Positions 1,777 through 61,418 of a stretch of 64,000 nt of DNA are shown here, one piece after another. The DNA lies in contig JACPDI010000027.1 of NCBI GenBank assembly GCA_016184105.1, forward strand, positions 52,112-116,111. The letters are read 5' to 3'. The number at the start of each line of letters is the position of its first letter. Position 1 is the stretch's first letter. Source of the stretch: Acidobacteriota bacterium (GTDB lineage Bacteria; Acidobacteriota; Vicinamibacteria; Vicinamibacterales; 2-12-FULL-66-21). Below the pieces are notes generated by a model, which saw only the letters and a list, made by a program, of their open reading frames with translations, was not told where the DNA came from and did not search any database. The translations under genes and the position numbers were made by a program.

Positions 1777-3258
1777 TCAGTCGTCGCTGAGGCAGGCGAT
1801 GTTCCGGCCGCTCGCCTTCGCGGAATACAAGGCGCGGTCGGCGCGCGCCACCAGATCCGCCGCGTTGTCCGACGGGCGCAGCACCGCCGCCCCGACGCTG
1901 ACGGTCACCCGCGCGCCGCCCGACTGGGCGGCTTGGGAAGTCCAGCGCATGGCGACGGCCCGGCCGATGCGCCGTGCGCTGCGGAGCGCCTGTTCCGCAC
2001 CACTCGCCGGCAGCACGATGACGAATTCGTCGCCGCCGTAGCGCGCGCAGATATCGAACGCGCGGATCGACCGCCGGAACACGTCGCCGACCTCGCGCAG
2101 GACGGCGTCTCCCACCAGGTGCCCGTACGTGTCGTTGACCGCCTTGAATTCGTCCAGGTCGAGCATCAGCAGCGAGAGTTCCAGCCCGTGGCGCCTGGCG
2201 CGCTCGACCTCCGCCTGCAACACCTGCCAGAAATGCTGTCGGCTGAGGAGCCTGGTCAGCGGGTCCAGGGCCGCCGCCTTCGCGAGCGCCTCCGCCTCCT
2301 GCGCGGCGCGATCCGACACCAGGGCCAGCGCAGCCGGCGCCAACATGGCTTTGACGGCCAGCAAGTCGGCGCGGTCGAACGGGCGGCGGTCCGTGCGGTC
2401 CGCGAGACACGCGACGCCGAGCACTTCGCGGCGGGCGCGCAGCGGCACCGCGATGAATGATGCGGTGCGGTAGCGCGGCCGGGGCGGACGGCCGAGCGTC
2501 GCCACGTCGGAAACCACGACAGGCCTGCCGCTCACGTAGGTCCCACCGATGATGCCCACGCCCGGCGCGATCTGCAGGTCGGCGACGAGCGCAGCCGGAT
2601 ACCCACTGGTCGCGACGACGCTCAGAAACGCGGAGGCCGGATCTTTCAGCGCCAGCGCGCCGATGCGCGCGCGCGCCGCACCGGCGAGCGAGTCGACGAT
2701 GAGCTGATACTGCGCCTGTCGCGAGAGACCCACCCCGAGCGCGCGCGAAAACCGGTACGCGCGTCGCATGATCCGGCTCGCCGCGCGGCTGGCCGCGCGT
2801 GCACCGGCGAGCAGGGGCGCGAACGTCAACTCGGCGGCCGCCGACCCCACCGCGCGTGCGGCCGACGCGATCAGCAGCACGCGCGAGCGCGTGGGATCGA
2901 CGGTCAACGGCACGCAGACCCACGGCCGGCCGCCCTGCGTCGACTCGACCGCGATGAATGGCTGCGACAAGTCGCCGCCCAGCATCGCGGCAAGCGAGGC
3001 CGGGTCGGGTTCGAGGTCGGCGCCGCCTGCCGACGCCTCCACGCGCCAGGCACCGTCCTCGCGGAGCATCAGCACTGAGGGCGCCTGCAGCAATGCCGAG
3101 ACAGCCGACGCGAGCGCCTGCCCGACGTCGGATGCCAAGACGAGCGGCCGGATCACCGACGTGATTACTCGTTCCAGCGACGCATCGATTGGGAGGTGGG
3201 CAGACGAATTTCCCGCCGATGGCATGGACGCGGTTCGACGTCGCACAGCGCGTGCCAC
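1777..3258 (-). CDS. GAF-domain diguanylate cyclase (GGDEF)
   Basis: ORF 1777..3258 (GTG). LMLDLDEFKAVNDTYGHLVGD..RAFDICARYGGDEFVIVLP: intact GGDEF plus an RxxD I-site 5 aa upstream. GAF-like central region. Alternative start ATG 3225 if the -24/-12 element at 3242..3257 is real. Confidence 0.85.
   Translation of the reverse strand: MARAVRRRTASMPSAGNSSAHLPIDASLERVITSVIRPLVLASDVGQALASAVSALLQAPSVLMLREDGAWRVEASAGGADLEPDPASLAAMLGGDLSQPFIAVESTQGGRPWVCVPLTVDPTRSRVLLIASAARAVGSAAAELTFAPLLAGARAASRAASRIMRRAYRFSRALGVGLSRQAQYQLIVDSLAGAARARIGALALKDPASAFLSVVATSGYPAALVADLQIAPGVGIIGGTYVSGRPVVVSDVATLGRPPRPRYRTASFIAVPLRARREVLGVACLADRTDRRPFDRADLLAVKAMLAPAALALVSDRAAQEAEALAKAAALDPLTRLLSRQHFWQVLQAEVERARRHGLELSLLMLDLDEFKAVNDTYGHLVGDAVLREVGDVFRRSIRAFDICARYGGDEFVIVLPASGAEQALRSARRIGRAVAMRWTSQAAQSGGARVTVSVGAAVLRPSDNAADLVARADRALYSAKASGRNIACLSDD
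3242..3257 (-). promoter_or_regulatory. sigma-54-type -24/-12 candidate upstream of the GGDEF gene: TGGCAC-gcgct-GTGCG
   Basis: Reverse complement of 3242..3257 reads TGGCACGCGCTGTGCG, with correct GG-N10-GC spacing. Lies inside the longest ORF but 18 nt upstream of the in-frame ATG 3225. Confidence 0.4.
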
Positions 3259-3390
3259 GCGAACGCTTCACCTGCCGATATCCGGCGTGTGCCGTCGCGC
3301 ATGGGTTCGACGTTCGGCAGATGTTTGTCCGTTGCCGCGGCGACTTGTTCGCGCGGTGGGGACGATCTGCTGCCACCGCTGCGGTTTCGG

Positions 3391-3406
3391 CGGAATACTG
3401 CTTGCA
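3391..3406 (+). promoter_or_regulatory. weak sigma-54-type -24/-12 candidate: CGGAAT-actgc-TTGCA
   Basis: GG-N10-GC spacing is correct and the -12 TTGCA is perfect, but the -24 is poor. About 43 nt upstream of ATG 3449. Confidence 0.3.
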
Positions 3407-3448
3407 CGACTCGCGGCACCCTGCGACGGCTGAGTGCGGACGGCAACC

Positions 3449-3706: not shown

Positions 3707-5847
3707 TGGCGCGCGCGCGCGCGGCTCCCGCCGCCCTGCTGTGTCTGCTCGCTCTGCCGTGCGCCGACGCGGCGGCGGCCGTGCCGCGGCCCGACCAGGT
3801 GCTGGTCGTGGCCAACGGCACGAGCCGCGCGTCGATGCAACTGGCGGACTACTACGTCCGGGCGCGCGGGATTCCCGCGGACCACGTGGTGCGAATCGCG
3901 GTGCCCCCGCAGGACGAGATCTCGCGCGCCGAGTACGCGCGGAACGTCGAGCGGCCGGTCGCGGAGTGGCTGCTGCGGCGCGGCGCGCAGGACCGCGTCC
4001 GGTACATCGTCCTGATGAGAGGGGTGCCGCTGCGAATCGCCGGCACCCTGGGCCGGGAAGGCACGACGGCCAGCGTCGACTCCGAACTCGCGCTGATCTA
4101 CCGGCGGCTCGCGGGAGGGCCCGTCAAGATCGCCGGACCGGTACAGAATCCGTACTTTCTTGGCCTGGAGCCGCTGGACGCGGCCCGGCCGTTTTCCCAC
4201 CAGGCACACGACGTCACGCTCGTCTCGCGCCTTGACGGCGTGACCGAGGCGCACGTGCGCGCGTTCATCGACCGGACCGGGACACCCGCCGTCGACGGCG
4301 TTTTCGCGCTCGACAGGTCCGGGACCGAGGATGCGGTGCGCGAGCGCCTGTTCCGCGAGGCCGCCGCGGCCCTCCTCGCCCGCGGCTTCGAGGGACGCGT
4401 GGTGACCGATGACACTTCGCGTCCGCTGCGGACGGACCAGGCGCTGCTCGGCTACTTTTCGTCGGGCGCGGTCCACGGTCACCCGCGCCTGCCCGAGGCG
4501 CGCTTCGCGCCGGGCGCGATTGCATCCGGCCTGTTCGCCGGCGATGCCGGCACATTCCAGGGGGCTGCGACCGCAGGCAGCCCCGGGCTCGGGGCCTTGA
4601 TCGGCGCGGGCGCTGCAGCGGCCGGATCGGTGGCGGATCCGTACGTCGACGGCGCGATTCGGCCGGCCATTCTATTTCCGGCTTATCTGGCGGGCATGAA
4701 CCAGGTCGATGCTTTTTATCTCGCGTTGCCCTATCTCAGTTGGCAGTCGGTCATCGTCGCCGACCCGTTCTGCGCGCCGTTCGGGCGGCGGCAGGGGGAG
4801 GAGGCCCCGGTCGAAGAGCCCGCGATCGACGCGCGCACCGGGCTGCCGCACTGGTTCGCGGCGCGCCGGGTGGCCGCGCTCGCGCCGGAGTCGGCGGTGG
4901 ATGGGGCGCGCGTTCAGATGGCGCTGGCAGAGACGCGGCTGGCGCGCGACGATTTCGCCGCCGCGGAGCAGGCAATCGAAGCGGCGATCGCGCTCGACCC
5001 GCGTTTCGTGCGCGCCCGGCTGTTCCAGGCAGGACTCCTGAAGCGCGCTGGGTTCCACGAGCGGTCGGCCGAGGCGTACCGCGAGGTGCTCGCGGTCGAT
5101 CCGAACAACGTGCCGGCGCTGAACGACCTCGCGTACCTGATCGCCGTCGATCTGCGGCGGCCCGCCGAGGCGCTCCCGTACGCCGAGAGGGCATTTCGTC
5201 TCGCCGAAGGAGACTCGGCGATCGCCGATACGATCGGCTGGGTTCATCACCTGCTCGGAGACAACATCACCGCCCGCCGGTACCTCGAGCAGGCGGTGAG
5301 CGGATCGCCGGAGCGTCAGGAGTTCCGGATCCACGCGGCGCTCGTGTACGCGGCGTTGGGTGAGACGGACCTCGCGGTGCGGGAGCTGGCGGCGGCCGAC
5401 GCCTTGTCGGGAGCGGCTGCCGAAGCGCCAGCGCCCGCACGCCCGCGGAAGGTTGATGGAGCCGCGCCGGTGGGGGCCCCCGTGGTGGCGACGCCGAGTC
5501 GCTCGACAGGGGGACGGCGCGCGGCGGCGCCGGGGCGACGCCCGAAGCCCGTCGGCAGCGCGGGGCCTGGGGGAAAAGCCGGTCGTGCCGCGCAGCCGCG
5601 CACGACCCGGCCGGTCCCGCGCGCTCGTCGCGGTGGCGCCGCGCGGCCGATGACGGCGACTGAAGTCGGCCTCCCGGCGGTCTGTTCTCCGGCGCCCGTC
5701 CGCGCGCGCCGGTTGACGAACGACTGCCGCTGCGGCGAAACGTCGCGCGCCGTCAACGACTTCCGCGTCGCGTGCGCCGGTGGCGCGCCCGCGGACGGTT
5801 GTGGCAGCCGCTTTGCTCCGTGTCGCCACGTCGCGGCAGGCGACTAA
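3706..5847 (+). CDS. secreted TIGR03790-like protein fused to a C-terminal TPR domain, with a low-complexity tail
   Basis: ORF 3703..5847. Signal peptide MARARAAPAALLCLLALPCADAAAA. N-terminal VLVVANGTSRASMQLADYYVRARGIPADHVVRI..RYIVLMRGVPLRI matches my memory of the TIGR03790 family. TPR repeats at about 4900..5390. The last 150 aa or so are Ala/Pro/Arg-rich. Confidence 0.75.
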   Translation: MARARAAPAALLCLLALPCADAAAAVPRPDQVLVVANGTSRASMQLADYYVRARGIPADHVVRIAVPPQDEISRAEYARNVERPVAEWLLRRGAQDRVRYIVLMRGVPLRIAGTLGREGTTASVDSELALIYRRLAGGPVKIAGPVQNPYFLGLEPLDAARPFSHQAHDVTLVSRLDGVTEAHVRAFIDRTGTPAVDGVFALDRSGTEDAVRERLFREAAAALLARGFEGRVVTDDTSRPLRTDQALLGYFSSGAVHGHPRLPEARFAPGAIASGLFAGDAGTFQGAATAGSPGLGALIGAGAAAAGSVADPYVDGAIRPAILFPAYLAGMNQVDAFYLALPYLSWQSVIVADPFCAPFGRRQGEEAPVEEPAIDARTGLPHWFAARRVAALAPESAVDGARVQMALAETRLARDDFAAAEQAIEAAIALDPRFVRARLFQAGLLKRAGFHERSAEAYREVLAVDPNNVPALNDLAYLIAVDLRRPAEALPYAERAFRLAEGDSAIADTIGWVHHLLGDNITARRYLEQAVSGSPERQEFRIHAALVYAALGETDLAVRELAAADALSGAAAEAPAPARPRKVDGAAPVGAPVVATPSRSTGGRRAAAPGRRPKPVGSAGPGGKAGRAAQPRTTRPVPRARRGGAARPMTATEVGLPAVCSPAPVRARRLTNDCRCGETSRAVNDFRVACAGGAPADGCGSRFAPCRHVAAGD
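5802..5817 (+). promoter_or_regulatory. sigma-54-type -24/-12 promoter candidate for the PEP-CTERM gene: TGGCAG-ccgct-TTGCT
   Basis: Reads TGGCAGCCGCTTTGCT. 59 nt upstream of ATG 5876, with SD GGAGGAG at 5861..5867 inside the predicted leader. Confidence 0.65.
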
Positions 5848-5875
5848 GCTCGTTCAGTGTGGAGGAGACCACAAC

Positions 5876-6538
5876 ATGATCAGGAGACTCTCTCTCGTTA
5901 CCGCGGCCGTCGCGCTGGCGTTGGGGCTCTCGGCCCCGGCGGCGCAGGCGGGCGCGATTATCGACTTCGGAACCGGAACTGCGGGCGCGGGCGGAACAAT
6001 CACCGTCAGCGGATCGCACGCCACCGGCAGCGGCATCCTTCTCGACGCGATGACGGTGCTCGGCTCTTCGGCCGACGGCGTGTACGACCTGTCGGGAGCG
6101 GGGGTGTCGGCAACCGCCGGCGGCGGCTCGAGCGCGGAGCTGTTCTTTGACACCGCGCTCGGTACCATTTCGGTCATCGGCGGGGTCCCGACCCTAGGAA
6201 TCGCGAGCGGGACGACGCTGCTGAGCGGAACGATCAAGAAATTCACGCTGACGACGGCAGGCGCTGTCGTGTCGGTGAGCGCTGTCGGCGCCGACCTGAA
6301 GAACCACGCCCTGCTCGCCGCGCTCGGACTGAACCCGGCATTGCCGTTCAAGTTCTTCAAGTTCACGCTCGGCGCGGACCTCACCTCACCATTCGGACCG
6401 GTGTACACCGCGACGAGCACGGATATCCTGAACGCCCAGGTGCCGGAACCCGGATCGCTCCTGCTTCTCGGTTCGGGGCTGCTCGGAATGGCGGGCGCGG
6501 CGAGGCGGAGGCTCCGCGCTCGGAAACAGCAGGCGTAG
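5876..6538 (+). CDS. PEP-CTERM sorting-domain protein (putative exosortase substrate)
   Basis: ORF 5780..6538 trimmed to ATG 5876 after a strong SD. Signal peptide MIRRLSLVTAAVALALGLSAPAAQA. Gly/Thr/Ser-rich body. C-terminus VPEPGSLLLLGSGLLGMAGAARRRLRARK is a textbook PEP-CTERM (PEP motif, TM helix, Arg cluster). Confidence 0.9.
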   Translation: MIRRLSLVTAAVALALGLSAPAAQAGAIIDFGTGTAGAGGTITVSGSHATGSGILLDAMTVLGSSADGVYDLSGAGVSATAGGGSSAELFFDTALGTISVIGGVPTLGIASGTTLLSGTIKKFTLTTAGAVVSVSAVGADLKNHALLAALGLNPALPFKFFKFTLGADLTSPFGPVYTATSTDILNAQVPEPGSLLLLGSGLLGMAGAARRRLRARKQQA

Positions 6539-6578
6539 TCACCGGAACGCACCTTTCATCTGCACTGAGAGAGAGCTG

Positions 6579-6619
6579 ACGCCCGGTCTGCTGCAGAGCG
6601 GACCGGGCGTTTGTCTTGT
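6579..6619 (+). terminator. rho-independent terminator after the PEP-CTERM gene
   Basis: Perfect 10-bp stem ACGCCCGGTC (6579..6588) / GACCGGGCGT (6601..6610), 12-nt loop, then TTGTCTTGT. Confidence 0.7.
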
Positions 6620-6678
6620 CGGCCGCGCCCGCGGCCTTGGTGAAGACCTCCGCCAGCCAGAGTTTTGGGATCGCGCGG

Positions 6679-6694
6679 GCAGACTCCTGTCTGC
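6679..6694. promoter_or_regulatory. perfect inverted repeat GCAGAC-tcct-GTCTGC (candidate activator site)
   Basis: Read directly. Starts 85 nt upstream of the -24 element at 6764. Shares the GGCAGAC half-site seen at other promoters in this window. Confidence 0.45.
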
Positions 6695-6763
6695 GCCGCC
6701 GCCACCTTCCGTCTCCCGCGCGCGCAAAGGCGCGCGATCCCGCCCCGGACGAGGCGCGGAAGC

Positions 6764-6779
6764 TGGCCGGGTCTTTGCC
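6764..6779 (+). promoter_or_regulatory. sigma-54-type -24/-12 candidate for the TPR lipoprotein gene: TGGCCG-ggtct-TTGCC
   Basis: Reads TGGCCGGGTCTTTGCC. The C of the -12 GC is 24 nt upstream of ATG 6802. Confidence 0.55.
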
Positions 6780-6801
6780 TGAACGGCGTGAGGAGCGTCC
6801 C

Positions 6802-8268
6802 ATGCCAGCCATGAACAGAATTCGCCTCGGCGTTGCGGTGCTTACCGCGGCCGTCGCCGCGGCGTGCGCGGATCCGGCGACCGTCAAGGCGCGACACGTC
6901 GCGAGCGGCGACCGGTACGTCGCGTCCGGCGCGGACACCGAGGCCATCATCGAATATCGGAATGCGCTGCAGCAGGATCCGCGCGACGGTCACGTGCGCC
7001 GCCGGCTCGCCGACGCGTTCGAGCGCACGTCCCAACCCGAGAAGGCGATGCGCGAGTACCTGCGGGCGGCGGACCTCCTTCCCGGCGACGCGGCGCTCCA
7101 GGTGAAGGCAGGCCAGTACCTTCTGCTCGCGAGGCAGTTCGCCGACGCACGGTCACGGGCCGAGAAGGTGCTCGCGAGGGATCCCCGCCAGGTCGACGCC
7201 CAGGTTCTGCTGGCGAACGCGCTCGCCGGCCTGCAGCAACTGAGTCAGGCCGTCCAGCAGATCGAGACCGCCGTCGCCACCGATCCGTCGCGCGCGGCCA
7301 GCTACACGAACCTCGCGTCGCTGAAGCTCGCGACCGGAGACCGTCGGGCGGCCGAGGCCGCCTTCCTCAAGGCCGTGGAGATTGACTCGCGGTCCGTTCC
7401 GGCACGGCTGGCGCTGGCCAACTTTTACTGGTCCGACGGGCGCAGCGACGAGGCCGAGGAGACGCTCAAGGCCGCGCTCCGGCTGGACCGGGACCACGAC
7501 CTGACGCAGCGCGCGCTGGCCATGTTCTACCTGTCGGCAGGCCGCGCGGCCGAAGCGGAAGCGCCGCTCAAGGCGCTGGCCGACAACACGAAGGATCCCG
7601 CGGCGCGACTCGCGCTGGCCGACTACTACTCGGGAACGGGACGCACCGCGGAGGCCCTGCGCGTGCTCGAGTCTTTGCGGGAGGGACCGCAGGCGACCGA
7701 GGCCCGGCTTCGAGAGGCCGCGATCCGGTACGACTCCGGAGAGCGGGAGGTTGCCGCTCGCGAGGTCGAGGCGCTGCTCGGGCGCGACGAGCAGCAGCCG
7801 CGGGCGCTGCTGCTGCAGGCCAGATGGGCGCTCTCCGAGGGACATCTCGACCGCGCGGCGGCAAAAGCGCGCGCCGCGGTCGCCGCCGATCCCCGATCGG
7901 CCGACGCGCACTCGGTGCTCGGCGCCGTCCACGGCGCGCGGCGGGAATACGAGGAAGCGGTGGCGGCATTCAGCGAGGTGCTGAGGCTCCGGCCGAGCGA
8001 CACGGCGGCGCCGCTCGCGCTCGCCAAGATCCATCTCGCGCGAGGCGAGGCGCGCTCGGCCGTTCCGTTCGCGCAGGCCGCCACGCGCGGCGACGAACCG
8101 TCGGACGAGGCGCAGATCGTCCTCGTGCAGGCGCTGCTCAAGACCCGCGACGTTCCAGGAGCCGAACGCGCGCTGCAGGCGGTCGTCGCCCGCGACCGGG
8201 CGCCGGCGCTGGTCAGCGCCGGCCTGATCGCGCTCGCGAGCACGTGGCCGCCGCGCCGAACGATGTGA
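6802..8268 (+). CDS. PEP-CTERM-system TPR-repeat lipoprotein (PrsT-like), N-terminal portion
   Basis: ORF 6616..8268 trimmed to ATG 6802 (SD GAGGAG 6790..6795). Lipoprotein-type signal MPAMNRIRLGVAVLTAAVAAAC. TPR repeats throughout. Confidence 0.8.
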   Translation: MPAMNRIRLGVAVLTAAVAAACADPATVKARHVASGDRYVASGADTEAIIEYRNALQQDPRDGHVRRRLADAFERTSQPEKAMREYLRAADLLPGDAALQVKAGQYLLLARQFADARSRAEKVLARDPRQVDAQVLLANALAGLQQLSQAVQQIETAVATDPSRAASYTNLASLKLATGDRRAAEAAFLKAVEIDSRSVPARLALANFYWSDGRSDEAEETLKAALRLDRDHDLTQRALAMFYLSAGRAAEAEAPLKALADNTKDPAARLALADYYSGTGRTAEALRVLESLREGPQATEARLREAAIRYDSGEREVAAREVEALLGRDEQQPRALLLQARWALSEGHLDRAAAKARAAVAADPRSADAHSVLGAVHGARREYEEAVAAFSEVLRLRPSDTAAPLALAKIHLARGEARSAVPFAQAATRGDEPSDEAQIVLVQALLKTRDVPGAERALQAVVARDRAPALVSAGLIALASTWPPRRTM

Positions 8269-8948
8269 GTGCCGCCATGCTCGCGGCCACCACCTTCGTG
8301 GCCACCAGCGCGCACGCGGACGCGGAAAAGCAGTTGAGGCGGGCGATCGCGCTCGACCCGGACCATTTGCCCGCGTACTCCATGCTCGGGCGCCTCTATC
8401 TGGCGACCAACCGGCTCGATGAAGGGCGGCGGGAGTTCGAGGCGCTCGCCCTGAAGCAGCCCCGGAACGAGGCGGCGCCCACCCTCATCGGCATGATCCT
8501 GCACGCGCAGAACCACCTCGCGGACGCGCAGAAATGGTACGAACGCGCGCTGCAGATCAGGGCCGACGCGGCCGTCGCGGCCAACAACCTCGCGTGGCTG
8601 TACGCCGAGCAGGGAGGGAACCTCGATATTGCGCTGCAGCTCGCGCAGACCGCGAAGCAGAAGATCCCGGACCACCCGGAGGTGAACGACACGCTCGGAT
8701 GGATCTATGTGAAGAAAGGTCTGCCGTCGCTCGCGCTGCGACCGCTGCAGGCCAGCGTTGCCGCTGAACCGTCGAACGCGACATATCAGTACCACCTTGG
8801 CGCCGCCTACGCGAAGCTCGGCGACACGGCGAACGCACGGCGCGTGCTCGGTCGCGTGCTGAAGGCGGGAACCGCGTTCCCCAACGCCCCCGACGCCCAG
8901 AAGCTGCTCGCGCAGCTCGGCGGACCGGACGGCACCCGATCGCGATGA
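8265..8948 (+). CDS. TPR-repeat protein; C-terminal continuation of the PrsT-like protein in another frame (split gene or frameshift)
   Basis: Last 228 codons of ORF 7824..8948. GTG 8265 overlaps the upstream stop (GTGA). TPR sequence LDPDHLPAYSMLGRLYLATNRLDEGRREFEALALKQP..NNLAWLYAEQGGNLDIALQLAQTA. Confidence 0.6.
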   Translation: MSAAMLAATTFVATSAHADAEKQLRRAIALDPDHLPAYSMLGRLYLATNRLDEGRREFEALALKQPRNEAAPTLIGMILHAQNHLADAQKWYERALQIRADAAVAANNLAWLYAEQGGNLDIALQLAQTAKQKIPDHPEVNDTLGWIYVKKGLPSLALRPLQASVAAEPSNATYQYHLGAAYAKLGDTANARRVLGRVLKAGTAFPNAPDAQKLLAQLGGPDGTRSR

Positions 8949-9061: not shown

Positions 9062-9077
9062 TGGCACCCGCCTCGCA
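9062..9077 (+). promoter_or_regulatory. sigma-54-type -24/-12 candidate: TGGCAC-ccgcc-TCGCA
   Basis: Reads TGGCACCCGCCTCGCA. About 170 nt upstream of ATG 9246. Confidence 0.5.
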
Positions 9078-10025: not shown

Positions 10026-10032
10026 CGTCGAG

Positions 10033-11718: not shown

Positions 11719-11734
11719 CGCAAGAGAGATACCG
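11719..11734 (-). promoter_or_regulatory. weak sigma-54-type -24/-12 candidate for paralog A: CGGTAT-ctctc-TTGCG
   Basis: Reverse complement of 11719..11734. GG-N10-GC spacing is correct but the -24 is poor. The C of the -12 GC is 17 nt upstream of ATG 11703, the same geometry as three other minus-strand candidates. Confidence 0.3.
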
Positions 11735-11839: not shown

Positions 11840-12511
11840 ATGTACCGACGCCCGTTTCAAATCCTGCTGGCCGAGCCGGACACGCTCGCGGCGTATCAAG
11901 TCATGCGGGCGCTGAAAGAGCGCGACTATCTGGTGGCGAGCGCGACGTCGGCCAACCAGGCGCGCTGGTGGCTCGACCAGTGGCCGATCGACCTGATGAT
12001 CGCCGCCGCGCGGATCGGCAGCGAGCGCGGGCTCGCGCTGCTGCTCGCCGCGCGCAAGAAGCATCCGCTCGTCGCCGGCCTCCTGACCGGAAGCGAGAAG
12101 GATCGGCCGCTCGACATCGACGCCCGGCGCCACGGCTTTCAACTGCTCGTCCGCCCTTTCGAATCGGTGTACCTGTTGATGGTCGTCGCAGAGCTGCTGG
12201 CCGCGGTCCGGCGACGGCAGCGCTGGCCGCGAAAGGCGGTGCACGGCGCGGTTCCGGTCAAGGTGGCCGGCCGCGCCGGACGAGTGGTGGACGTGAGCTA
12301 CGGCGGCCTGCGATTTGAACTCGATGGTGAGATCGTCGACGTGCCATCGCCGATGATCATCCAGTTCGCGGGCGAGCGGCTCCGCGTGGAGGCGGAGCTG
12401 GTGTGGTCGGCGCGCGGCAGCGACGGCGTCTCGTCGGTGTGCGGCGTGGCGCTCAGCGATGCGTCGATGCCGGACCGCGCGTGGCGGAAGTTCGTGGACC
12501 GTGTGGCATAA
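11840..12511 (+). CDS. pseudo-receiver / PilZ-domain protein (putative c-di-GMP receptor)
   Basis: ORF 11840..12511. REC-like N-terminus (ILLAEPD..IDLMIAAARIG) lacks the acceptor Asp. C-terminal PilZ motifs RRRQRWPRK (RxxxR) and DVSYGG (DxSxxG). Confidence 0.8.
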   Translation: MYRRPFQILLAEPDTLAAYQVMRALKERDYLVASATSANQARWWLDQWPIDLMIAAARIGSERGLALLLAARKKHPLVAGLLTGSEKDRPLDIDARRHGFQLLVRPFESVYLLMVVAELLAAVRRRQRWPRKAVHGAVPVKVAGRAGRVVDVSYGGLRFELDGEIVDVPSPMIIQFAGERLRVEAELVWSARGSDGVSSVCGVALSDASMPDRAWRKFVDRVA

Positions 12512-13055: not shown

Positions 13056-13071
13056 TGGCACGTGGCCTGCC
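13056..13071 (+). promoter_or_regulatory. sigma-54-type -24/-12 candidate: TGGCACG-tggc-CTGC
   Basis: Reads TGGCACGTGGCCTGCC. Perfect -24 TGGCACG and GC at the correct spacing. About 230 nt upstream of ATG 13299. Confidence 0.5.
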
Positions 13072-16139: not shown

Positions 16140-17000
16140 CTACCAGCGTGAGTTTACGACATAGCCGAACCGGATCAGCTCACGGCCTGCCACCACCTTG
16201 AAAATTCGGCGCTTGGCCCAGTGCCAGTGCTGCCATCGTCCGATTGGCTGAAACTCGTCTGGTTTCTCGACGACATCCCAGTGCACGCGATCGCGGCTGC
16301 CGCGGTGCACCGACGAGCCACGCAGCGGGATCGACTGGAGCCCCGACCAGTTGAACGCGGATTCGTCGACATCCAGGAACGCGAGCAGCTCGCGCACGAC
16401 GCGCTCCGGGTCGCGAATCAGGTCTTCGTACTTCACCAGCGTCCACGACCAACCACGGTCCTGACCGCCGGTTTCGTCCATGAACCGCAGAATGGCACGC
16501 GCGCCGCTCGCCCACCGCTCCATCCAGTACGCGCCCGGCGCGTAGCGCCAGCTGCGGCCGGCAGACTCCACGACGTCGCGGCCGTCGCGCACGAGAATCA
16601 CGAGTTGCGCGTGCGGGAACAGCCGGAAGAAGTTCTCGAGATGCCGCGCGCTTGGCGTCTTGGCCAGCACCCGTCGTCCCTCATCGATCTGATCGCCGAG
16701 AAAGGCAAGGATGCCGTCGCCGATCCGCGAGAGCAGCTGCTCGCGGAACACCCGGCGTTCGACCGAGGTGGACTGGCCCCAGCTGCGGCCGGTCTTCTCG
16801 ACGTAGCGGACGAGGAGATCCGAATGCTCCAGCAGGTAGTCCTCGACAATCCGGCCGGGAAGCTTGAACACCGGATGCAGCCGGAGGACGTGGGACAGAT
16901 AGTTCGTCCCGCACCGATTCATGACGCCGACGATGAAGACCGGCGACGCCGCACGGACAGACGCCAACATCGCCCGGGACGTCAGCAAAGTCGTCGCCAT
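16140..17000 (-). CDS. sulfotransferase family protein (ST1)
   Basis: ORF 16140..17165 trimmed to ATG 17000. 5'-PSB-like FIVGVMNRCGTNYLSHVL and 3'-PB-like LVRDGRDVVES. Confidence 0.8.
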   Translation of the reverse strand: MATTLLTSRAMLASVRAASPVFIVGVMNRCGTNYLSHVLRLHPVFKLPGRIVEDYLLEHSDLLVRYVEKTGRSWGQSTSVERRVFREQLLSRIGDGILAFLGDQIDEGRRVLAKTPSARHLENFFRLFPHAQLVILVRDGRDVVESAGRSWRYAPGAYWMERWASGARAILRFMDETGGQDRGWSWTLVKYEDLIRDPERVVRELLAFLDVDESAFNWSGLQSIPLRGSSVHRGSRDRVHWDVVEKPDEFQPIGRWQHWHWAKRRIFKVVAGRELIRFGYVVNSRW

Positions 17001-17185: not shown

Positions 17186-17201
17186 TGGCCGCGTCCTTGC
17201 T
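17186..17201 (+). promoter_or_regulatory. sigma-54-type -24/-12 promoter candidate for paralog B: TGGCCG-cgtcc-TTGCT
   Basis: Reads TGGCCGCGTCCTTGCT, 15 of 16 identical to the element at 36306. 53 nt upstream of GTG 17254, with SD AAGGAG in the leader. Confidence 0.6.
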
Positions 17202-17253: not shown

Positions 17254-18744
<1,491 letters not shown>

Positions 18745-20764: not shown

Positions 20765-20780
20765 TGCCGGTCCCGTGCCG
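20765..20780 (-). promoter_or_regulatory. weak sigma-54-type -24/-12 candidate for the hydrolase gene: CGGCAC-gggac-CGGCA
   Basis: Reverse complement of 20765..20780. GG-N10-GC spacing is correct. Predicted leader of about 40 nt contains the SD. Confidence 0.3.
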
Positions 20781-20828: not shown

Positions 20829-20864
20829 GTCTGCCCCGAGGCAGACATTACTCACGCGAAACGG
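20829..20864. promoter_or_regulatory. candidate upstream activator site: GTCTGCC-ccga-GGCAGAC palindrome plus a conserved CGCGAAACGG block
   Basis: Perfect 7+7 inverted repeat at 20829..20846. The pattern GTCTGCC-N7-AGACAT-N6-CGCRAAACGG recurs at 36197..36232 at the same distance (108 and 109 nt) from a -24 element. Confidence 0.55.
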
Positions 20865-20936: not shown

Positions 20937-20952
20937 TGGCGAGCACTTTGCT
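20937..20952 (+). promoter_or_regulatory. sigma-54-type -24/-12 promoter candidate for the xrtA operon: TGGCGA-gcact-TTGCT
   Basis: Reads TGGCGAGCACTTTGCT. 23 nt upstream of ATG 20975, 50 nt upstream of the alternative GTG 21002 that has SD GGGAGAGG. Confidence 0.6.
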
Positions 20953-34124: not shown

Positions 34125-35539
34125 CAGGCCATCCCGATATTTCTGTGAAGCCGCTCGACCGCGGCAGCCGCACGGCGCCAGCCGAACTCGCGCTGCGCGC
34201 GCTTCCGCGCGGCATCACCCATGCGCGCCCGCAACCGCGGCGCGCCGACGAGGCGCTCCAGCGCCGACGCCAGCTCGCCGACGTCTCTCCCGCCGACCAG
34301 CAGGCCCGTGACCCCGTTCTCGATCGCCTCTGACACGCCGCCGGTGGCGCCGCCGATGGCCGGTTTCCCCGATGCGGCCGCTTCCAGGAAGACGATCCCG
34401 AATCCCTCGAAGTCGATCCCTTCGACGCGGTTGGGCAACAGGAACACGTCGCACGCGGCGAAATACGCCGGAAGCACGGCGTCATCGACCGCGCCGGCAA
34501 ACATCACACGGTCCTCAATCTCGAGCGCCTGCGCCATTTCCCGCAGCGCCACACGCTCGCGCCCGTCCCCGACGACGACGTACTTGATGCGCGGCGAGAC
34601 GTGCTTCAGCGCCGCGACGGCTCGAAGCGCGAGGTCGTGCCCCTTGCGCCGCTGCAGCCTGCCGACCGACAGGACGATGACCTCATCGGGCGCCCCGAGT
34701 GTCGGCCGGAGACCGATGCCCTGGTCCGCGTCGGGATGAAAGCGATCGGCATCCACGCCGGGATGCACGACATGGATGCGTTCGGCGGCGACGCCGAGGC
34801 CCTCGAGCAGCCCAGCCGTGTTGCGGCTGTTGGCGACAATCGCCGCGGCCCCCCGGTGCACGATCCGCATCAGCGCGGTCAGCTCGCGCGACGCGCGCGC
34901 GTACGCCAGCTCCTCGCCGTGGGTCCAGCACACATAGCGGGGACCCCCGAGGCGCGCCGCAAGCCACGCCGCAAGCCCTTCGGGGAGCACGCGCGCACAG
35001 TGGACGACGGGGGCCGCGTGACGGCTCAGCGCGCGGATGCGGGCAGCGACCGTGAGGTGATGCACCAGTGCGGATGGGCGCCGCACACCCCAGTCGCGCG
35101 CGGCGATCCGCCGCCGCAGAATTCTCATCTCCCCGTCGGAAACGTCTTCGACAGCTTGGCCGGCATCGGTCAGCACGTCGACGGGGATGCCGGCCAGGCG
35201 GCCGTACACGTTCTTCAACAGCACCCCGCTGCCGCCGATGGCGGGAGGAAAGAGCTCGCTGACCAGCAGAATCGGCGGCACGCCCGCGGAAGCGACCTGC
35301 CCCGCTGCGTGCCCGTCGGTGTGCCACACGATTTGCTCGACGCGAGACACTCTCCTCCGCGCTCCGGACGCAACCGAGCGGCACAGTAAACGCGGGAACC
35401 CCCGCCTGGGTGGCCGTCTTGCGGTGCGATACCGGGTGCTGCCCGGCATCGCCAATCCCGTGCCACCAGCTTCGGACGGGATTGCTGTCTGCGCTGCGGG
35501 CTCGATCCTTCGAGACGGCGAACTTTTGTCAGCCGTCAT
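34124..35539 (-). CDS. glycosyltransferase family 4
   Basis: ORF 34124..35539. The GT core starts near ILLVSELFPPAIGG, so the true start is probably 150-250 nt downstream of 35539. EGFGIVFLEAAASGKPAIG. Confidence 0.75.
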   Translation of the reverse strand: MTADKSSPSRRIEPAAQTAIPSEAGGTGLAMPGSTRYRTARRPPRRGFPRLLCRSVASGARRRVSRVEQIVWHTDGHAAGQVASAGVPPILLVSELFPPAIGGSGVLLKNVYGRLAGIPVDVLTDAGQAVEDVSDGEMRILRRRIAARDWGVRRPSALVHHLTVAARIRALSRHAAPVVHCARVLPEGLAAWLAARLGGPRYVCWTHGEELAYARASRELTALMRIVHRGAAAIVANSRNTAGLLEGLGVAAERIHVVHPGVDADRFHPDADQGIGLRPTLGAPDEVIVLSVGRLQRRKGHDLALRAVAALKHVSPRIKYVVVGDGRERVALREMAQALEIEDRVMFAGAVDDAVLPAYFAACDVFLLPNRVEGIDFEGFGIVFLEAAASGKPAIGGATGGVSEAIENGVTGLLVGGRDVGELASALERLVGAPRLRARMGDAARKRAQREFGWRRAAAAVERLHRNIGMA

Positions 35540-36305: not shown

Positions 36306-36321
36306 TGGCCGCGTCTTTGCT
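36306..36321 (+). promoter_or_regulatory. sigma-54-type -24/-12 promoter candidate for the GT-C operon: TGGCCG-cgtct-TTGCT
   Basis: Reads TGGCCGCGTCTTTGCT. 27 nt upstream of ATG 36348. Confidence 0.6.
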
Positions 36322-37784: not shown

Positions 37785-37785
37785 C

Positions 37786-39457: not shown

Positions 39458-39483
39458 CCGCGGGCATTCGAGGGTGATCCAAC

Positions 39484-48429: not shown

Positions 48430-48432
48430 GCC

Positions 48433-52417: not shown

Positions 52418-52433
52418 CGCAAACCGCCGGCCA
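52418..52433 (-). promoter_or_regulatory. sigma-54-type -24/-12 promoter candidate for the ligase-like gene: TGGCCG-gcggt-TTGCG
   Basis: Reverse complement of 52418..52433 reads TGGCCGGCGGTTTGCG. The C of the -12 GC is 17 nt upstream of ATG 52402. Confidence 0.55.
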
Positions 52434-52557: not shown

Positions 52558-52573
52558 GGGCGACACTCTTGCA
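52558..52573 (+). promoter_or_regulatory. sigma-54-type -24/-12 candidate for ST4: GGGCGA-cactc-TTGCA
   Basis: GG-N10-GC spacing is correct and the -12 TTGCA is perfect, but the -24 is moderate. 29 nt upstream of ATG 52602. Confidence 0.35.
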
Positions 52574-52601: not shown

Positions 52602-53582
52602 ATGACCACCGGAACAGCGGCCGTTCGAGTGCCGGAGCCCGCGGCGATGCCCTCCCCGACGGGGGCCAATTACGCGTTCATCGTCGGGCACTACAAGAGC
52701 GGGAGCACGTGGCTGGCGAACCTGCTGGCCCTGCATCCGGATATCCGCTGCCTCGGCGAGACGAACGTCTTTCGTTATGCGGCCACGCAGGACATCGCCA
52801 CGGCCACGCGTAACCTGTTTACCAGCTCGTACTGGAGCGGCGGCGGCCTCGCCAGGCTGCCGCGGCATCGGCTGGCGGTCGCGGCGGCCGCTGTGCAGGG
52901 GCTGTGGCGGCAGGCCCCCCCGCGGACCGCGCGTCCCTCGACGCTGCTGGATCTCAGCCTGCTCGACCAGCGCGCGCTCAGGCGCGAGCTGCTGGCCAGC
53001 AGGTCGGGCGAGGATTACTGCCGCCGCTTCTTCGACTTCGTGGGCGCGCGCCTCAAGCCGCGCGCGTACCTGGTCGAGAAGACGCCCAATCACGTGCTCG
53101 TGACCCCGTTCATCCGGTCGGTCTTTCCCGAGGCACGGCTCGTCGCCGTGTATCGCGACGGGCGCGATGTCGTCGTCTCCGATCGGTTCTTCTCGGCGCG
53201 GCGCGGCCGGGCGTGGAATTTCGCGGCGAGCGTCGAATACTGGCGCCGGCTGATCGAAGCGCAGCGCGCGTACGCGTCGAAGTACGGCATCTTCACCTGC
53301 GCTTACGAGTCGCTGCTCGAGGATGGCGCCGGGACGGTCGCCGGGCTGCTGCGGTTCCTGGGGCTCCCCGCCGACGAGCACGTGTCCGCGATGCTGCGCT
53401 ACTCGTCGATCAGTTTCATGACCGGGCGCCGGCCGGGAGACGAGGACCGAGGAAGTTTCTACCGCAGGGGCGTCCGCGGCGACTGGCGGAATCACTTCAC
53501 CGACGAGGACAAGCGCCGGTTCAAGGAGATCGCCGGCGACCTGCTGATCGAGCTGGGGTACGAACGCGACGGAGACTGGTGA
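52602..53582 (+). CDS. sulfotransferase family protein (ST4)
   Basis: ORF 52374..53582 trimmed to ATG 52602. 5'-PSB FIVGHYKSGSTWLANLL, 3'-PB AVYRDGRDVVVSD, C-terminal RRGVRGDWRNHFT. Confidence 0.85.
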   Translation: MTTGTAAVRVPEPAAMPSPTGANYAFIVGHYKSGSTWLANLLALHPDIRCLGETNVFRYAATQDIATATRNLFTSSYWSGGGLARLPRHRLAVAAAAVQGLWRQAPPRTARPSTLLDLSLLDQRALRRELLASRSGEDYCRRFFDFVGARLKPRAYLVEKTPNHVLVTPFIRSVFPEARLVAVYRDGRDVVVSDRFFSARRGRAWNFAASVEYWRRLIEAQRAYASKYGIFTCAYESLLEDGAGTVAGLLRFLGLPADEHVSAMLRYSSISFMTGRRPGDEDRGSFYRRGVRGDWRNHFTDEDKRRFKEIAGDLLIELGYERDGDW

Positions 53583-53597
53583 CGGGCCGCGATCGCC

Positions 53598-56292: not shown

Positions 56293-56294
56293 GG

Positions 56295-58124: not shown

Positions 58125-58140
58125 ATGACAGCTCGTGCCC

Positions 58141-59181: not shown

Positions 59182-60518
59182 CGCGCCGCCCTCTCGACCG
59201 CGACCAGCGGGGCGCGGCGTCCGGTGGCGACATACGTGAATCCCAGCGATCGCACCCGCGCCGGATCCAGCACGTTCCGCACGTCCACGATGACGGCGTC
59301 CCGCATGACTCCCTGCAGGCGGTGCAGGTCGAGGCTGCGGAATTCGTTCCACTCGGTCATGATGACCACGGCATCGGCGCCATCGGCCGCCTCGTAGGCG
59401 GACTCCGCGTACGTCACCGCGTCCGCCTCGATGACCGCCGCCGCCGACGCGCAGGCCACCGGATCGAACGCCCGTACGATCGCGCCTTCCTCGACCAGCC
59501 GGATGCACAGATGGATCGCCGGCGACTCGCGGACGTCGCTCGTGTTCGGCTTGAACGCGAGCCCGAGCACCGCGATCGTCCGGCCCGCGAGTCCCGCCAC
59601 CGCTGCGGCGACCTTCGCCACGACGGCCTCCCCCTGCGCGATGTTGACGGCGATGGCCGACTCGACGATCCGCAGGGGCACGCCGTATCGGCGTCCGAGC
59701 GTGGCGAGCGCCCTCGTGTCTTTCGGAAAACACGATCCACCGAAGCCGGGGCCTGCGTGAAGGAACTTCGGCCCGATCCGCTTGTCGAGCCCCATCGCCT
59801 TCGCGACGACGTGCACGTCCACGCCGACCTCGTCGCAGAGGTTCGCGATCTCGTTCACGAAGCTGATCTTCGTCGCCAGGAACGCGTTGCACGCGTACTT
59901 GATCAGCTCCGCCGTCTCCGGATCGGTGCAGACAACCGGCGTGTCGATCAGGTACAGCGGTCGATACAGGTCGCGCATGATTGCGGACGCCTGCGCGCTG
60001 TTCGACCCGATGACCACGCGGTCCGGGCGCATGAAATCGCCCACGGCGGACCCCTCGCGGAGGAACTCGGGATTCGAGACGACGTCCACCCGCGCCGGCT
60101 GCAGCAGGTGCGCGCGCACGAGCTCCGACACGCGGCGGTTGGTGCCGACCGGCACGGTGCTCTTGATGGCGATGACGTGGTAGCCGTCCAGCTCCCGCGC
60201 GACCTCCACGATCGCGCGGTCCAGTTGCGTGAGATCGGGGCTTCCCGCGCCGTCGTCCGGCGTCCCGACCGCCAGGATGATGACGCGCGTGCCGGCGACG
60301 CCGTCCTTCAGCCGATGCGAAAACCGCAGGCGGCCGGCGGCGACATTGTGGTGCACCAGCTCGGAGGCGCCGGGCTCGTGAAACGGGAGCGCGCCGCGGC
60401 AGAGCCCTTCGATCCGGTCCGCGTCCGCATCGACGCACGTCACCGTGTGCCCGAAGTCGGCCAGGCACGCGCCCGTGACCAGTCCGACGTATCCCGCGCC
60501 GATCACCCCCACATTCAT
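59178..60518 (-). CDS. ugd: UDP-glucose 6-dehydrogenase
   Basis: Tail of ORF 59178..61433, starting at ATG 60518. MNVGVIGAGYVGLVTGACLA (Rossmann), GFGGSCFPKD (catalytic Cys), AFKPNTSDVRESP. Confidence 0.9.
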   Translation of the reverse strand: MNVGVIGAGYVGLVTGACLADFGHTVTCVDADADRIEGLCRGALPFHEPGASELVHHNVAAGRLRFSHRLKDGVAGTRVIILAVGTPDDGAGSPDLTQLDRAIVEVARELDGYHVIAIKSTVPVGTNRRVSELVRAHLLQPARVDVVSNPEFLREGSAVGDFMRPDRVVIGSNSAQASAIMRDLYRPLYLIDTPVVCTDPETAELIKYACNAFLATKISFVNEIANLCDEVGVDVHVVAKAMGLDKRIGPKFLHAGPGFGGSCFPKDTRALATLGRRYGVPLRIVESAIAVNIAQGEAVVAKVAAAVAGLAGRTIAVLGLAFKPNTSDVRESPAIHLCIRLVEEGAIVRAFDPVACASAAAVIEADAVTYAESAYEAADGADAVVIMTEWNEFRSLDLHRLQGVMRDAVIVDVRNVLDPARVRSLGFTYVATGRRAPLVAVERAAR

Positions 60519-61387
60519 GCGGCCCCCGCTCTTACGGCTGCGAGCCCCACCGCGGCACTGACCGTGTCGAACCGGAATTCCGCCAGCAGGCGGCGCAGGC
60601 GGGACTCGGTCCGGTGAAGGTTTCGATAATGGCGAAGGCGCGACAGCCAGGGCGCCGCGAACCTGGGCTGCGCCGGATCGATCTCCCACGGGTGCACGTA
60701 AAACACGGCGGGCTTCCGCTCGACCAGATTGAGGCGGCGAATGCCGAACGACGTCCAGGCGTACGGCAGCATGCGGAAGTATCCGCCCCCGCCGATGGGA
60801 AGATTGACGGCGCCGCAGCGGATCGTCGACCCGGGCACCTCGAGGAGCGTGCCGCCGGGGCGCCGGACCGTGTGAGGATGCCGCGGCGCCGAGGGCAGGC
60901 CGTAGCGATCGTGATGGATCGGAAACACACTGGCGTCGTAGACGAACCCTTCTTCGATCAGGATGTCCAGCGCCCATAGCGAAGCCGCGGTCACCGAGTA
61001 GCTCGGCGCGCGGTACCCGAGAACCGGCATCGAAGCCGCGGATTCGATCGCGTACCGCGACCGCCGCACGTCCGCGCGGAATTCCTCCGGCGTCATCGCG
61101 TAAATCAGGCGGTGCGAATAACCGTGCGACGCCAGCTCGTGCCCCGCGGCGGCGATGCGGCGGATCAGGGCGGGGAATCGCTCGGCCACCCACCCGAGGA
61201 CGAAGAAGGTCGCGCGCACGCGGTGGTCTGCAAACATCCGCAGCAGCCGATCCGTGTTGGCGCAGACGCGGCTTTCGAGCCGGTCCCACTGGTGCCGGCC
61301 CACCACGTCGTCGAACGCGCTGACCTGGAAGTAGTCCTCGACGTCCACCGTCATGGCGTTGGTCACGCCCGTCGCCTGCGAGTGCAT
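60515..61387 (-). CDS. polysaccharide deacetylase, PEP-CTERM/XrtA-locus subfamily
   Basis: ORF 60515..61387. NAMTVDVEDYFQVSAF..ATFFVLGWVAERFP..GHELASHGYSH. Alternative start ATG 61354 gives the usual N-terminus. Confidence 0.85.
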   Translation of the reverse strand: MHSQATGVTNAMTVDVEDYFQVSAFDDVVGRHQWDRLESRVCANTDRLLRMFADHRVRATFFVLGWVAERFPALIRRIAAAGHELASHGYSHRLIYAMTPEEFRADVRRSRYAIESAASMPVLGYRAPSYSVTAASLWALDILIEEGFVYDASVFPIHHDRYGLPSAPRHPHTVRRPGGTLLEVPGSTIRCGAVNLPIGGGGYFRMLPYAWTSFGIRRLNLVERKPAVFYVHPWEIDPAQPRFAAPWLSRLRHYRNLHRTESRLRRLLAEFRFDTVSAAVGLAAVRAGAA

Positions 61388-61402
61388 TCAAGGCGCCCGG
61401 GC

Positions 61403-61418
61403 TGCGACCTGCATGCCA
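61403..61418 (-). promoter_or_regulatory. internal sigma-54-type -24/-12 candidate: TGGCAT-gcagg-TCGCA
   Basis: Reverse complement of 61403..61418. In the 129-nt gap between the sugar transferase and deacetylase genes. Confidence 0.5.

Follow-up and report, generated by a model that had tools for sequence, protein, structure and literature searches.

Acidobacteriota are among the most abundant bacteria in soil, and their exopolysaccharides (EPS) matter for soil aggregation; to our knowledge, almost nothing is known about how the synthesis of these polymers is regulated. A 64,000-nt stretch of contig JACPDI010000027.1 from an Acidobacteriota bacterium (GenBank assembly GCA_016184105.1), here called the window and numbered from its first letter, carries an EPS locus in which many genes are preceded by elements resembling the -24/-12 promoters of sigma-54 (RpoN), an alternative sigma factor. 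This raises the question of how much of the locus depends on sigma-54 and which activator would switch it on. An earlier note on this DNA had proposed that such an element stands before essentially every transcription unit and that the whole locus is an RpoN regulon. On the basis of the present analysis, 12 of the elements are predicted to be sigma-54 promoters of the main operons, and the whole locus would stay off until an AAA+ activator turned on all of it together; we give this reading a probability of about 75%.

Predicted sigma-54 sites in the window

The full motif, TGGC-N7-TTGC, was found nine times in the whole window against an expectation of 1.93 +/- 1.3, and none of 100 dinucleotide shuffles reached nine. 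By a rough estimate, the earlier note had expected only a few chance matches. All 14 sequences that it listed were found again with correct positions and strands, and its six full matches were all among the nine, although it had missed those at 16999(-), 18889(+) and 27733(+). Eight of the nine fell in a non-coding set of 10.7 kb (intergenic or at most 60 nt from gene ends), for which dinucleotide shuffles of the same segments gave 0.36 +/- 0.62, and one fell in deep coding DNA (106.7 k strand-positions, that is, ~53 kb on both strands). When the spacer of TGGC-Nk-TTGC was varied from k = 3 to 11, the non-coding DNA of the window had eight matches at k = 7 and 0-1 at every other length. With an independent sigma-54 matrix, 15 matches scoring at least 9.7 were found in the non-coding set (2.8 +/- 1.7 expected) and 4 in deep coding DNA, which is the difference between intergenic and coding DNA that the earlier note had foreseen. 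All seven window matches scoring at least 11.9 were intergenic and in sense orientation (-12 C at 61404(-), 13070, 3243(-), 5816, 35451(-), 6778 and 20951), and the non-coding, sense-upstream placement of the sites in the window has a binomial p of 2e-6. A clade-derived matrix used with the G+C content of the window as background, of which the site at 36306 was the top match (15.1), was dropped; it discriminated poorly because CTGCTG leucine codons score well.

The 12 sites considered credible score 9.7-13.7 with the independent matrix. Seven have the full motif and five have the form TGGCAY-N7-GC, six of whose nine window copies are intergenic. Among the ~20 transcription-unit heads in the window, 12 have a credible site (a full match at seven, that at 16999(-) being ambiguous, and a high-scoring TGGCAY-type site at five), four have a weak match only and four have none, so the claim that essentially every unit is preceded by the element went too far. 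Each of the four large biosynthetic operons begins with a credible site, and so do the PEP-CTERM, PrsT-like, O-antigen-ligase-like and GGDEF genes and several genes for secreted proteins. The PEP-CTERM gene (5876-6538; TIGR02595 22.1 bits, cutoff 16) is a single-gene operon with its sigma-54 motif at 5802, within the final 45 nt of the preceding gene, and a terminator at 6578-6611 closes it off from the PrsT-like gene downstream. After the start codons of xrtA, the GT-C gene, the genes at 9246 and 13299, the sulfotransferase gene at 17000 and the GT4 gene had been re-examined, the six full matches of the earlier note all lie at most 60 nt from a start, as it had stated (Table 1). The four matches that it had called good (9062, 13056, 61418(-) and 3257(-)) score 10.9-13.7, and 35465(-), which it did not list, is of the same class.

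A weak match only was found before the TIGR03790/TPR gene, the gene for secreted-protein paralog A, the esterase-like gene at 20713 and the sulfotransferase gene at 52629. These are the four sites that the earlier note had ranked as weaker, and they could not be upheld: three score below 9 and 20780(-) scores 9.7, in a band where the excess in related loci (see below) is ~0.3. They are most likely chance matches. No site was found for the activator, LuxR-type response regulator, REC-PilZ and DUF218 genes; the regulator genes are outside the sigma-54 set. Thus, the proposed RpoN regulon seems to hold for the large biosynthetic operons, the PEP-CTERM and PrsT-like genes and other structural genes, and it does not extend to the regulator genes or to the four weak sites.

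Table 1. Positions of candidate sigma-54 sites, GCAGAC copies and selected genes in the window, and of sites in related loci. Scores are those of the independent matrix; distances are given in nt, those marked C being measured from the -12 C.
Feature	Position	Strand	Sequence	Score	Distance to start	Remarks
PEP-CTERM gene	5802..5817	+	TGGCAGCCGCTTTGCT	12.6	60 (C)	ATG 5876, Shine-Dalgarno GGAGGAG
PrsT-like TPR lipoprotein gene	6764..6779	+	TGGCCGGGTCTTTGCC	11.9	24 (C)	ATG 6802
Secreted acidic double-disulfide-repeat protein B	17186..17201	+	TGGCCGCGTCCTTGCT	10.1	54 (C)	GTG 17254, Shine-Dalgarno AAGGAG
Sulfotransferase gene 16140-16971	16984..16999	-	TGGCGACGACTTTGCT	9.8		Seventh full match; ambiguous
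xrtA operon	20937..20952	+	TGGCGAGCACTTTGCT	11.9	24 or 51 (C)	To 28370: xrtA, epsI, wzm, wzt, sulfotransferase, PAPS synthase; xrtA start GTG 21002 with Shine-Dalgarno GGGAGAGG, or ATG 20975
14.6-kb operon, ATG 36348 to 50979	36306..36321	+	TGGCCGCGTCTTTGCT		28 (C)	GT-C/HAD/UbiA/AsnB/glycosyltransferase/DASS
Exosortase-A-associated O-antigen-ligase-like gene	52418..52433	-	TGGCCGGCGGTTTGCG	9.7	17 (C)	ATG 52402; predicted leader very short
7.8-kb operon, 61387 to 53598	61403..61418	-	TGGCATGCAGGTCGCA	13.7		Highest score in window; deacetylase, UDP-glucose dehydrogenase, two carbamoyltransferases, FemAB
Operon 35350 to 28338	35450..35465	-	TGGCACGGGATTGGCG	12.5		Intergenic, sense; G for T at -14; GT4/amidotransferase/sulfotransferase/methyltransferase
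CARDB-domain secreted protein gene	13056..13071	+	TGGCACGTGGCCTGCC	13.2	229 (C)	ATG 13299; long leader, lower confidence
Secreted hypothetical protein gene	9062..9077	+	TGGCACCCGCCTCGCA	10.9	170 (C)	ATG 9246
GGDEF diguanylate cyclase gene	3242..3257	-	TGGCACGCGCTGTGCG	13.0		Start 3225 or 3156
Weak site, unsupported	3391..3406	+	CGGAATACTGCTTGCA	<9
Weak site, unsupported	11719-11734	-		<9
Weak site, unsupported	20765-20780	-		9.7
Weak site, unsupported	52558-52573	+		<9
Non-promoter full match	18889-18904	+				Antisense at 3' edge of esterase-like gene
Non-promoter full match	27733-27748	+				Inside PAPS-synthase gene
Palindrome GTCTGCC-CCGA-GGCAGAC	20829..20846		GTCTGCCCCGAGGCAGAC			xrtA divergent region, 91-108 nt upstream of site; clearest copy
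Palindrome GCAGAC-TCCT-GTCTGC	6679..6694					75-85 nt upstream of PrsT-like promoter
Further GCAGAC/GTCTGC copies	8974, 12992, 17042, 35487, 36197, 52441, 61509					GTCTGC 109 nt upstream of site 36306 and 88 nt upstream of 9062; GCAGAC 96 nt upstream of 61418(-) and 64 nt upstream of 13056
Sigma-54 enhancer-binding protein gene	1..953	-				3' end cut by window edge; PF00158 208.9 bits
Sulfotransferase gene	16140-17000	-
Sulfotransferase gene	25555-26607	+
Sulfotransferase gene	30117-30998	-
Sulfotransferase gene	52629-53582	+
Bifunctional PAPS synthase gene	26595-28370	+				Sulfate adenylyltransferase/APS kinase
DASS-family anion transporter gene	46621-48429	+
Sites of stand-alone receiver gene, related loci	L082 11681, L084 11701, L086 4770	-
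Sites of Terriglobia-like activator gene, related loci	L045 ~9217, L046 ~9288, L053 ~5780, L067 ~9544, L070 ~6795	-
Sites of ~165-aa protein gene, related loci	L004 14065, L005 14052, L011 14049, L013 14042

Conservation in related loci

To place these sites in a wider context, we collected 76 related xrtA loci (1.36 Mb) and counted motif orientation in unidirectional upstream zones. The full motif was found there 37 times in sense and twice in antisense orientation, and in the non-coding DNA of the relatives TGGC-Nk-TTGC occurred 61 times at k = 7 versus 13-24 times at other k. The sense-over-antisense excess of matrix matches rose with score, from ~0.3 at 9-10 to ~0.7 at 10-12 and >0.9 at 12 or more. 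The class [ACG]GG-N8-TTGC[AT], which holds the weak sites, showed 34 sense versus 18 antisense copies. Moreover, Gibbs sampling on 37 PEP-CTERM upstream regions of the relatives, with the window left out, recovered TGGCAnG-N4-TTGCT, and in the loci labelled Acidobacteriota alone, 21 of 34 PEP-CTERM genes had an upstream TGG-N9-TGC in sense orientation and one had it in antisense orientation. Sites of the sigma-54 type were common before PEP-CTERM genes and the homologs of Wzm (4/6) and of the tyrosine kinase (2/2), and the activator genes homologous to the enhancer-binding protein of the window were preceded by one at 25 of 34 unit heads.

Sites were rare before xrtA (3/55 unit heads) and PrsT-like genes (2/28), so the promoters of the biosynthetic operons are lineage-specific as far as can be judged from motif occurrence; their support comes from the statistics within the window and from the loci of orthologous activators described below. 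A conserved xrtA promoter was considered and rejected, the strict motif being present upstream of xrtA in 3 of 80 relatives. A metagenome scan with the TIGR03790/TPR protein for relatives close enough for base-by-base footprinting yielded only one, at 48%, and conservation was therefore assessed at the level of motifs only.

Several additional observations were made in these loci. In Terriglobia-like relatives, a gene for a ~320-aa activator is divergent from xrtA and has its own sigma-54 site (TGGCACCCGCCTTGCT); a large palindrome (GGGAAAAGTAACC...GGTTACC...AAAACTTTCCC) lies upstream of it, an arrangement that points to autoregulation. In four relatives, a strict sigma-54 site precedes the gene of a conserved ~165-aa protein of unknown function (C-terminus ...VLELEQEHVKNSDLWLDDVRLAAA) located 4 kb 3' of xrtA; no counterpart of this protein was found in the window. 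Finally, repeated GTAAA motifs lie upstream of the sigma-54 site of PEP-CTERM genes in three loci (L004 ~9011, L011 ~9033 and L013 ~18414). They resemble the TTTACA enhancer that Haft et al. described in Proteobacteria, and a PrsR-type system may thus be present in some Acidobacteriota.

Candidate activator

The earlier note had assumed a sigma-54 activator at 1..953. The gene does encode one, but it is read from the minus strand and runs off the edge of the window. P0001, a full-length protein with 99% identity, has 370 aa, with the AAA+ sigma-54-interaction domain beginning at residue 7 and no receiver or sensor domain. The loop that contacts sigma-54 is GSFTDA, a loop of the GAFTGA type that is kept in the orthologs, and the C-terminus forms an unusual helix-turn-helix-like tail, conserved in the family and not recognised as HTH_8. 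The protein is neither PrsR (TIGR02915 242.0 bits versus a cutoff of 502.6, the match being limited to the AAA+ part) nor a PspF ortholog (227.9 versus 443.6 bits).

Orthologs with 60-64% identity are common in Vicinamibacterales, where they again occur in EPS loci. In these loci, sigma-54 sites were found before a divergent pair of sugar-nucleotide and ABC-exporter operons, before a PEP-CTERM gene and before a small gene for a stand-alone receiver of ~140 aa that adjoins the activator orthologs. Two loci share the same site before the receiver gene (CTGGCATCAGCGTTGCC), and a third has one that is almost the same. This receiver may act as the regulatory partner that the activator, having no receiver of its own, is missing. 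The region matching the receiver gene would fall just outside the window.

Candidate enhancer

In an unbiased screen of the window, GGCAGAC/GTCTGCC was the top intergenic-enriched 7-mer (9 intergenic versus 7 coding copies, p = 2e-6), with an enrichment on a par with that of the Shine-Dalgarno sequence. The hexamer GCAGAC occurs at 6.8 per kb in the -5 to -150 zones of the 12 promoters versus 0.5 per kb in other intergenic and coding DNA (13-fold), and 10 of the 12 have at least one copy at an upstream distance of 13-144 nt. The upstream activator sequence of a sigma-54 promoter is expected roughly 70-150 nt upstream. By sharing this element, the TGGCAY sites are tied to the full-match sites. 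Close to the sigma-54 sites of the orthologous-activator loci, a related GCCAGA / GTCTGGCCAGAC element was observed. GCAGAC may be the enhancer to which the activator binds or the site of another regulator.

Proposed regulation and alternative explanations

In all the computational tests applied, namely fit to the consensus, spacer length, orientation, restriction to non-coding DNA and independent rediscovery in related genomes, the elements look like sigma-54 promoters. Because they head all the large operons together with the PEP-CTERM, PrsT-like and ligase-like genes, a largely RpoN-dependent EPS/exosortase locus is the best reading of these data. According to this reading, sigma-54 holoenzyme would be bound at the -24/-12 sites as a closed complex and would fire only after ATP-driven remodelling by an AAA+ enhancer-binding protein bound upstream; until then the locus would be silent, and its operons would come on together. 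With less confidence, the activator would be the receiver-less 370-aa protein and would work through the GCAGAC/GTCTGC element upstream of 10 of the 12 promoters. Since it lacks a regulatory N-terminal domain, it is expected to be controlled in trans or via its expression, so that partner proteins or the amount of activator made, and not phosphorylation, would determine its activity. Both the assignment of the activator and the GCAGAC enhancer are reasonable hypotheses.

It should be noted that several points weigh against this reading. No rpoN gene is present in the window, and the activator is linked to the promoters by proximity and by a candidate shared upstream element only. That element was tested after the pattern had been seen, it occurs in both orientations at distances from -13 to -144, and it was not enriched in the xrtA-anchored relatives (4/42). 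The rarity of sites before the xrtA and PrsT-like genes of the relatives also belongs here, as does the observation that prsT of Aquincola, downstream of an RpoN-dependent pepA, is not RpoN-dependent (PMC9850573). As for the sites themselves, five depart from TTGC at -12 (TCGC, CTGC, GTGC, TGGC). Several have their -12 C only 14-28 nt from the first in-frame start (52402, 61387, 16971, 6802 and 36348), which implies leaders of ~2-16 nt unless the real starts are further downstream, and the two distances of 170 and 229 nt are long. The site at 16999(-) overlaps the ATG at 17000, and the Sulfotransfer_3 domain begins at residue 20 counting from that ATG, so this site may be the sulfotransferase promoter or mere coding sequence. 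In addition, gene starts came from our own codon-bias caller, and the independent matrix was written by hand after the published sigma-54 consensus, with a uniform background.

That the matches arose by chance, in a genome of 70% G+C with relatively T-rich intergenic DNA, appears extremely improbable. The bare GG-N10-GC pattern is indeed uninformative, with ~1,550 copies in the window and no orientation bias (84 sense versus 69 antisense), the weak sites fall in score bands whose antisense control is nearly as frequent, and two of the full matches are inside a gene or antisense to one, which is as many as chance would produce, although antisense or internal starts at 18889 and 27733 are possible. 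For the 12 strong sites, however, chance is refuted by the excess over same-segment shuffles, the enrichment of the 7-nt spacer only, the orientation in the relatives and the intergenic, sense placement of the top seven matrix matches. We give equally little credit to the idea that TGGC-N7-TTGC is not a sigma-54 site and belongs to a dispersed repeat or serves another DNA-binding protein as its operator. The sites at 17186 and 36306 are identical at 15 of 16 positions and four sites have TGGCCG instead of the canonical TGGCAC, as such an origin would suggest, but their flanks are dissimilar, a repeat would not keep a strict strand orientation to genes, and the motif found de novo in the relatives agrees with the sigma-54 consensus throughout, down to the A at -22, the G at -20 and the T at -11.

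A narrower possibility is that, as in Proteobacteria, only the PEP-CTERM gene and a few others depend on sigma-54, whereas the sites before xrtA, the PrsT-like gene, the GT-C operon and the other biosynthetic operons have little or no affinity for it and these operons run mainly from unrecognised housekeeping promoters. The rarity of sites before xrtA and PrsT-like homologs would agree with this, as would the RpoN-independent prsT of Aquincola, the awkwardly short predicted leaders and the many non-productive sigma-54 sites of E. coli reported in PMC4591121. Nevertheless, enrichment and orientation in the window are equally strong for the biosynthetic operons and for the PEP-CTERM gene, GCAGAC co-occurs with the sites of the biosynthetic operons, the orthologous-activator loci of Vicinamibacterales also have sites before such operons, and no sigma-70 consensus promoter could be identified in the first 60 kb of the window, which makes this alternative unlikely. 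A more serious competitor, and a real possibility although we would not favour it at even odds, accepts the sigma-54 promoters and assigns them to one or more activators whose genes lie in other parts of the genome; that at 1..953(-) would then be a mere neighbour and GCAGAC the site of another factor, for example the adjacent LuxR-type regulator. Regulators of the NarL/LuxR type bind heptamers, which counts for this alternative. It is also in line with the many sigma-54 activators of Acidobacteriota, the second, NtrC-type activator in the orthologous loci, the short GCAGAC element with its two orientations and variable distance, and the 20 kb between the activator gene and xrtA. On the other side stand the repeated embedding of this activator family in EPS loci and the GCCAGA-type element near the sigma-54 sites of the ortholog loci.

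A broader generalization of the largely RpoN-dependent reading can be offered only tentatively, with more doubt than confidence: in Vicinamibacteria-like Acidobacteriota, the whole programme for a sulfated XrtA/PEP-CTERM EPS (exosortase, export and biosynthesis, secreted proteins and diguanylate cyclase) might be one sigma-54 regulon, switched by an undescribed family of receiver-less 365-385-aa activators via a GCAGAC-type enhancer and independent of PrsK/PrsR. If this is true, exosortase systems came under sigma-54 control in more than one phylum, each time with another activator.

Gene content of the locus

Gene calling with a codon-bias model trained on the window itself, whose G+C content is 66-73% per 2-kb window and ~70% overall, gave 50 genes. 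According to NCBIfam and Pfam, these include exosortase A, EpsI, a Wzm/Wzt ABC exporter, many glycosyltransferases (among them the XrtA-associated stp1 and stp2), an amidotransferase, a FemAB-family protein, a polysaccharide deacetylase, EpsB_2, a tyrosine autokinase, an O-antigen-ligase-like protein, one PEP-CTERM protein and PrsT-like TPR proteins. Scores exceeded the curated cutoffs for XrtA (213.4 bits, cutoff 208), EpsI (154.6, 42.8), stp1 (341.3, 316.7), FemAB (359.5, 260.4), the deacetylase (399.1, 276.2), EpsB_2 (489.3, 393.4) and the ligase (TIGR03097; 211.6, 188.1). The components that define an XrtA/PEP-CTERM EPS locus, namely exosortase A, EpsI, a PEP-CTERM protein and XrtA-associated marker enzymes, are all present. 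The closest XrtA proteins in GTDB (one genome per species) are at most 68% identical and nearly all from Acidobacteriota, mostly Vicinamibacteria/Vicinamibacterales. From its gene content, the window is classified as an XrtA/PEP-CTERM EPS locus of a Vicinamibacteria-like Acidobacteriota. As the locus contains four sulfotransferase genes, a bifunctional synthase for 3'-phosphoadenosine-5'-phosphosulfate (PAPS), with sulfate adenylyltransferase and adenosine-5'-phosphosulfate (APS) kinase activities, and a DASS-family anion transporter, its EPS is probably sulfated.

Two apparent gaps of 879 and 557 nt were considered as extra promoter regions and rejected, because they hold genes for a sulfotransferase (30117-30998(-)) and a HAD hydrolase (37786-38484(+)), respectively. 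With these two genes in place, the adjoining genes fuse into long operons. Both genes escape simple callers based on codon bias or on G+C at third codon positions. No riboswitch was found in the long leaders by an Rfam scan, and no sigma-70 promoter for the units without a sigma-54 site was found when the first 60 kb of the window were scanned for the consensus. One element missed by that scan, at 1107-1146, consists of TTGACA, an 18-19-nt spacer and CATACT, which is followed at once by the start codon (ATG) of the LuxR-type response regulator gene, and may be a housekeeping-type promoter giving a leaderless mRNA.

Other features of the locus were also recorded. The PrsT-like TPR protein is encoded by two overlapping open reading frames (6802-8268 and 8244-8948, both +) that match the N- and C-terminal parts of TIGR02917, which could be due to a frameshift, an assembly error or a truly split gene. 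Secreted paralogs with acidic double-disulfide repeats (NF033662) are encoded at 10072-11703(-) and 17254-18744(+), and only paralog B has a full sigma-54 match. A cyclic di-GMP (c-di-GMP) module comprises a GAF-like/GGDEF diguanylate cyclase (1777-3225(-)), whose gene has a high-scoring sigma-54 site, and a receiver-PilZ protein (11840-12511(+)), whose gene has none. The segment 13056-13075, right after the preceding gene, forms a partial palindrome (CTGGCACGTGGCCTGCCAG), and the matrix matches it on either strand.

Comparison with known systems

A sigma-54 motif and an upstream TTTACA-containing motif were previously found before 99 of 167 proteobacterial PEP-CTERM genes; according to the authors, the motif was shared by Proteobacteria only, and they linked it to PrsK, PrsR and PrsT (Haft et al., 2006; PMC1569441). 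In Aquincola, pepA is RpoN-dependent with a mapped transcription start (PMC9850573). The window resembles the PrsK/PrsR/PrsT system in that a -24/-12 element lies 23-220 nt before a single-gene PEP-CTERM operon within an XrtA/EPS locus, the next gene after it encodes a TPR (PrsT-like) protein and the locus includes an AAA+ activator. It differs in its phylum and in the lack of PrsR, which combines a receiver, a sigma-54 domain and a Fis-type helix-turn-helix. The PrsK histidine kinase (TIGR02916) had no match among the 50 window proteins and could sit outside the window, and the two adjacent reading frames matching PrsT (TIGR02917) score 156.6 and 116 bits, both under the cutoff of 312.2. Motif 1 of the proteobacterial system, which has 17 nt, ends in TTTACA and lies ~63 nt upstream of the sigma-54 motif, was also sought: TTTACA/TGTAAA occurs in the window only at 1092, 20269 and 29061, none near a sigma-54 site, and the TTTACA enhancer is present in only a few of the acidobacterial relatives.

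The older view of the link between sigma-54 and PEP-CTERM genes as limited to Proteobacteria is corrected by our comparative data. In the literature collection that was searched, no description of sigma-54/exosortase-locus promoters for Acidobacteriota was found. Our results extend a known theme to a new phylum and do not introduce a new mechanism; the predicted promoters, the candidate activator and the candidate enhancer together constitute a testable circuit for an uncultured lineage.

In floc-forming Proteobacteria, EPS synthesis is not known to depend on RpoN. Unlike in these bacteria, where prsT is reported to be independent of RpoN (PMC9850573), the sites in the window head xrtA and the biosynthetic operons as well. 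Control of a whole EPS cluster by sigma-54 and an enhancer-binding protein is established in Proteobacteria, for example for Burkholderia Bep with BerB/RpoN (PMC9684580) and for vps of Vibrio alginolyticus (PMC11722192), and sigma-54 has been associated with a general 'bacterial exterior' theme (PMC3162934). The window is similar in placing an alternative sigma factor and an AAA+ activator over a polysaccharide cluster with c-di-GMP components (here the GGDEF and REC-PilZ genes), and different in its activator family and in its XrtA/PEP-CTERM, probably sulfated polysaccharide. The activator itself is similar to enhancer-binding proteins of the PspF/HrpRS type in that its AAA+ domain begins at residue 7 and neither a receiver nor a sensor domain precedes it. 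Unlike PspF, it has a C-terminal DNA-binding region that is not recognised as HTH_8, no PspA-like partner was seen, and its orthologs are flanked by the gene for a stand-alone receiver.

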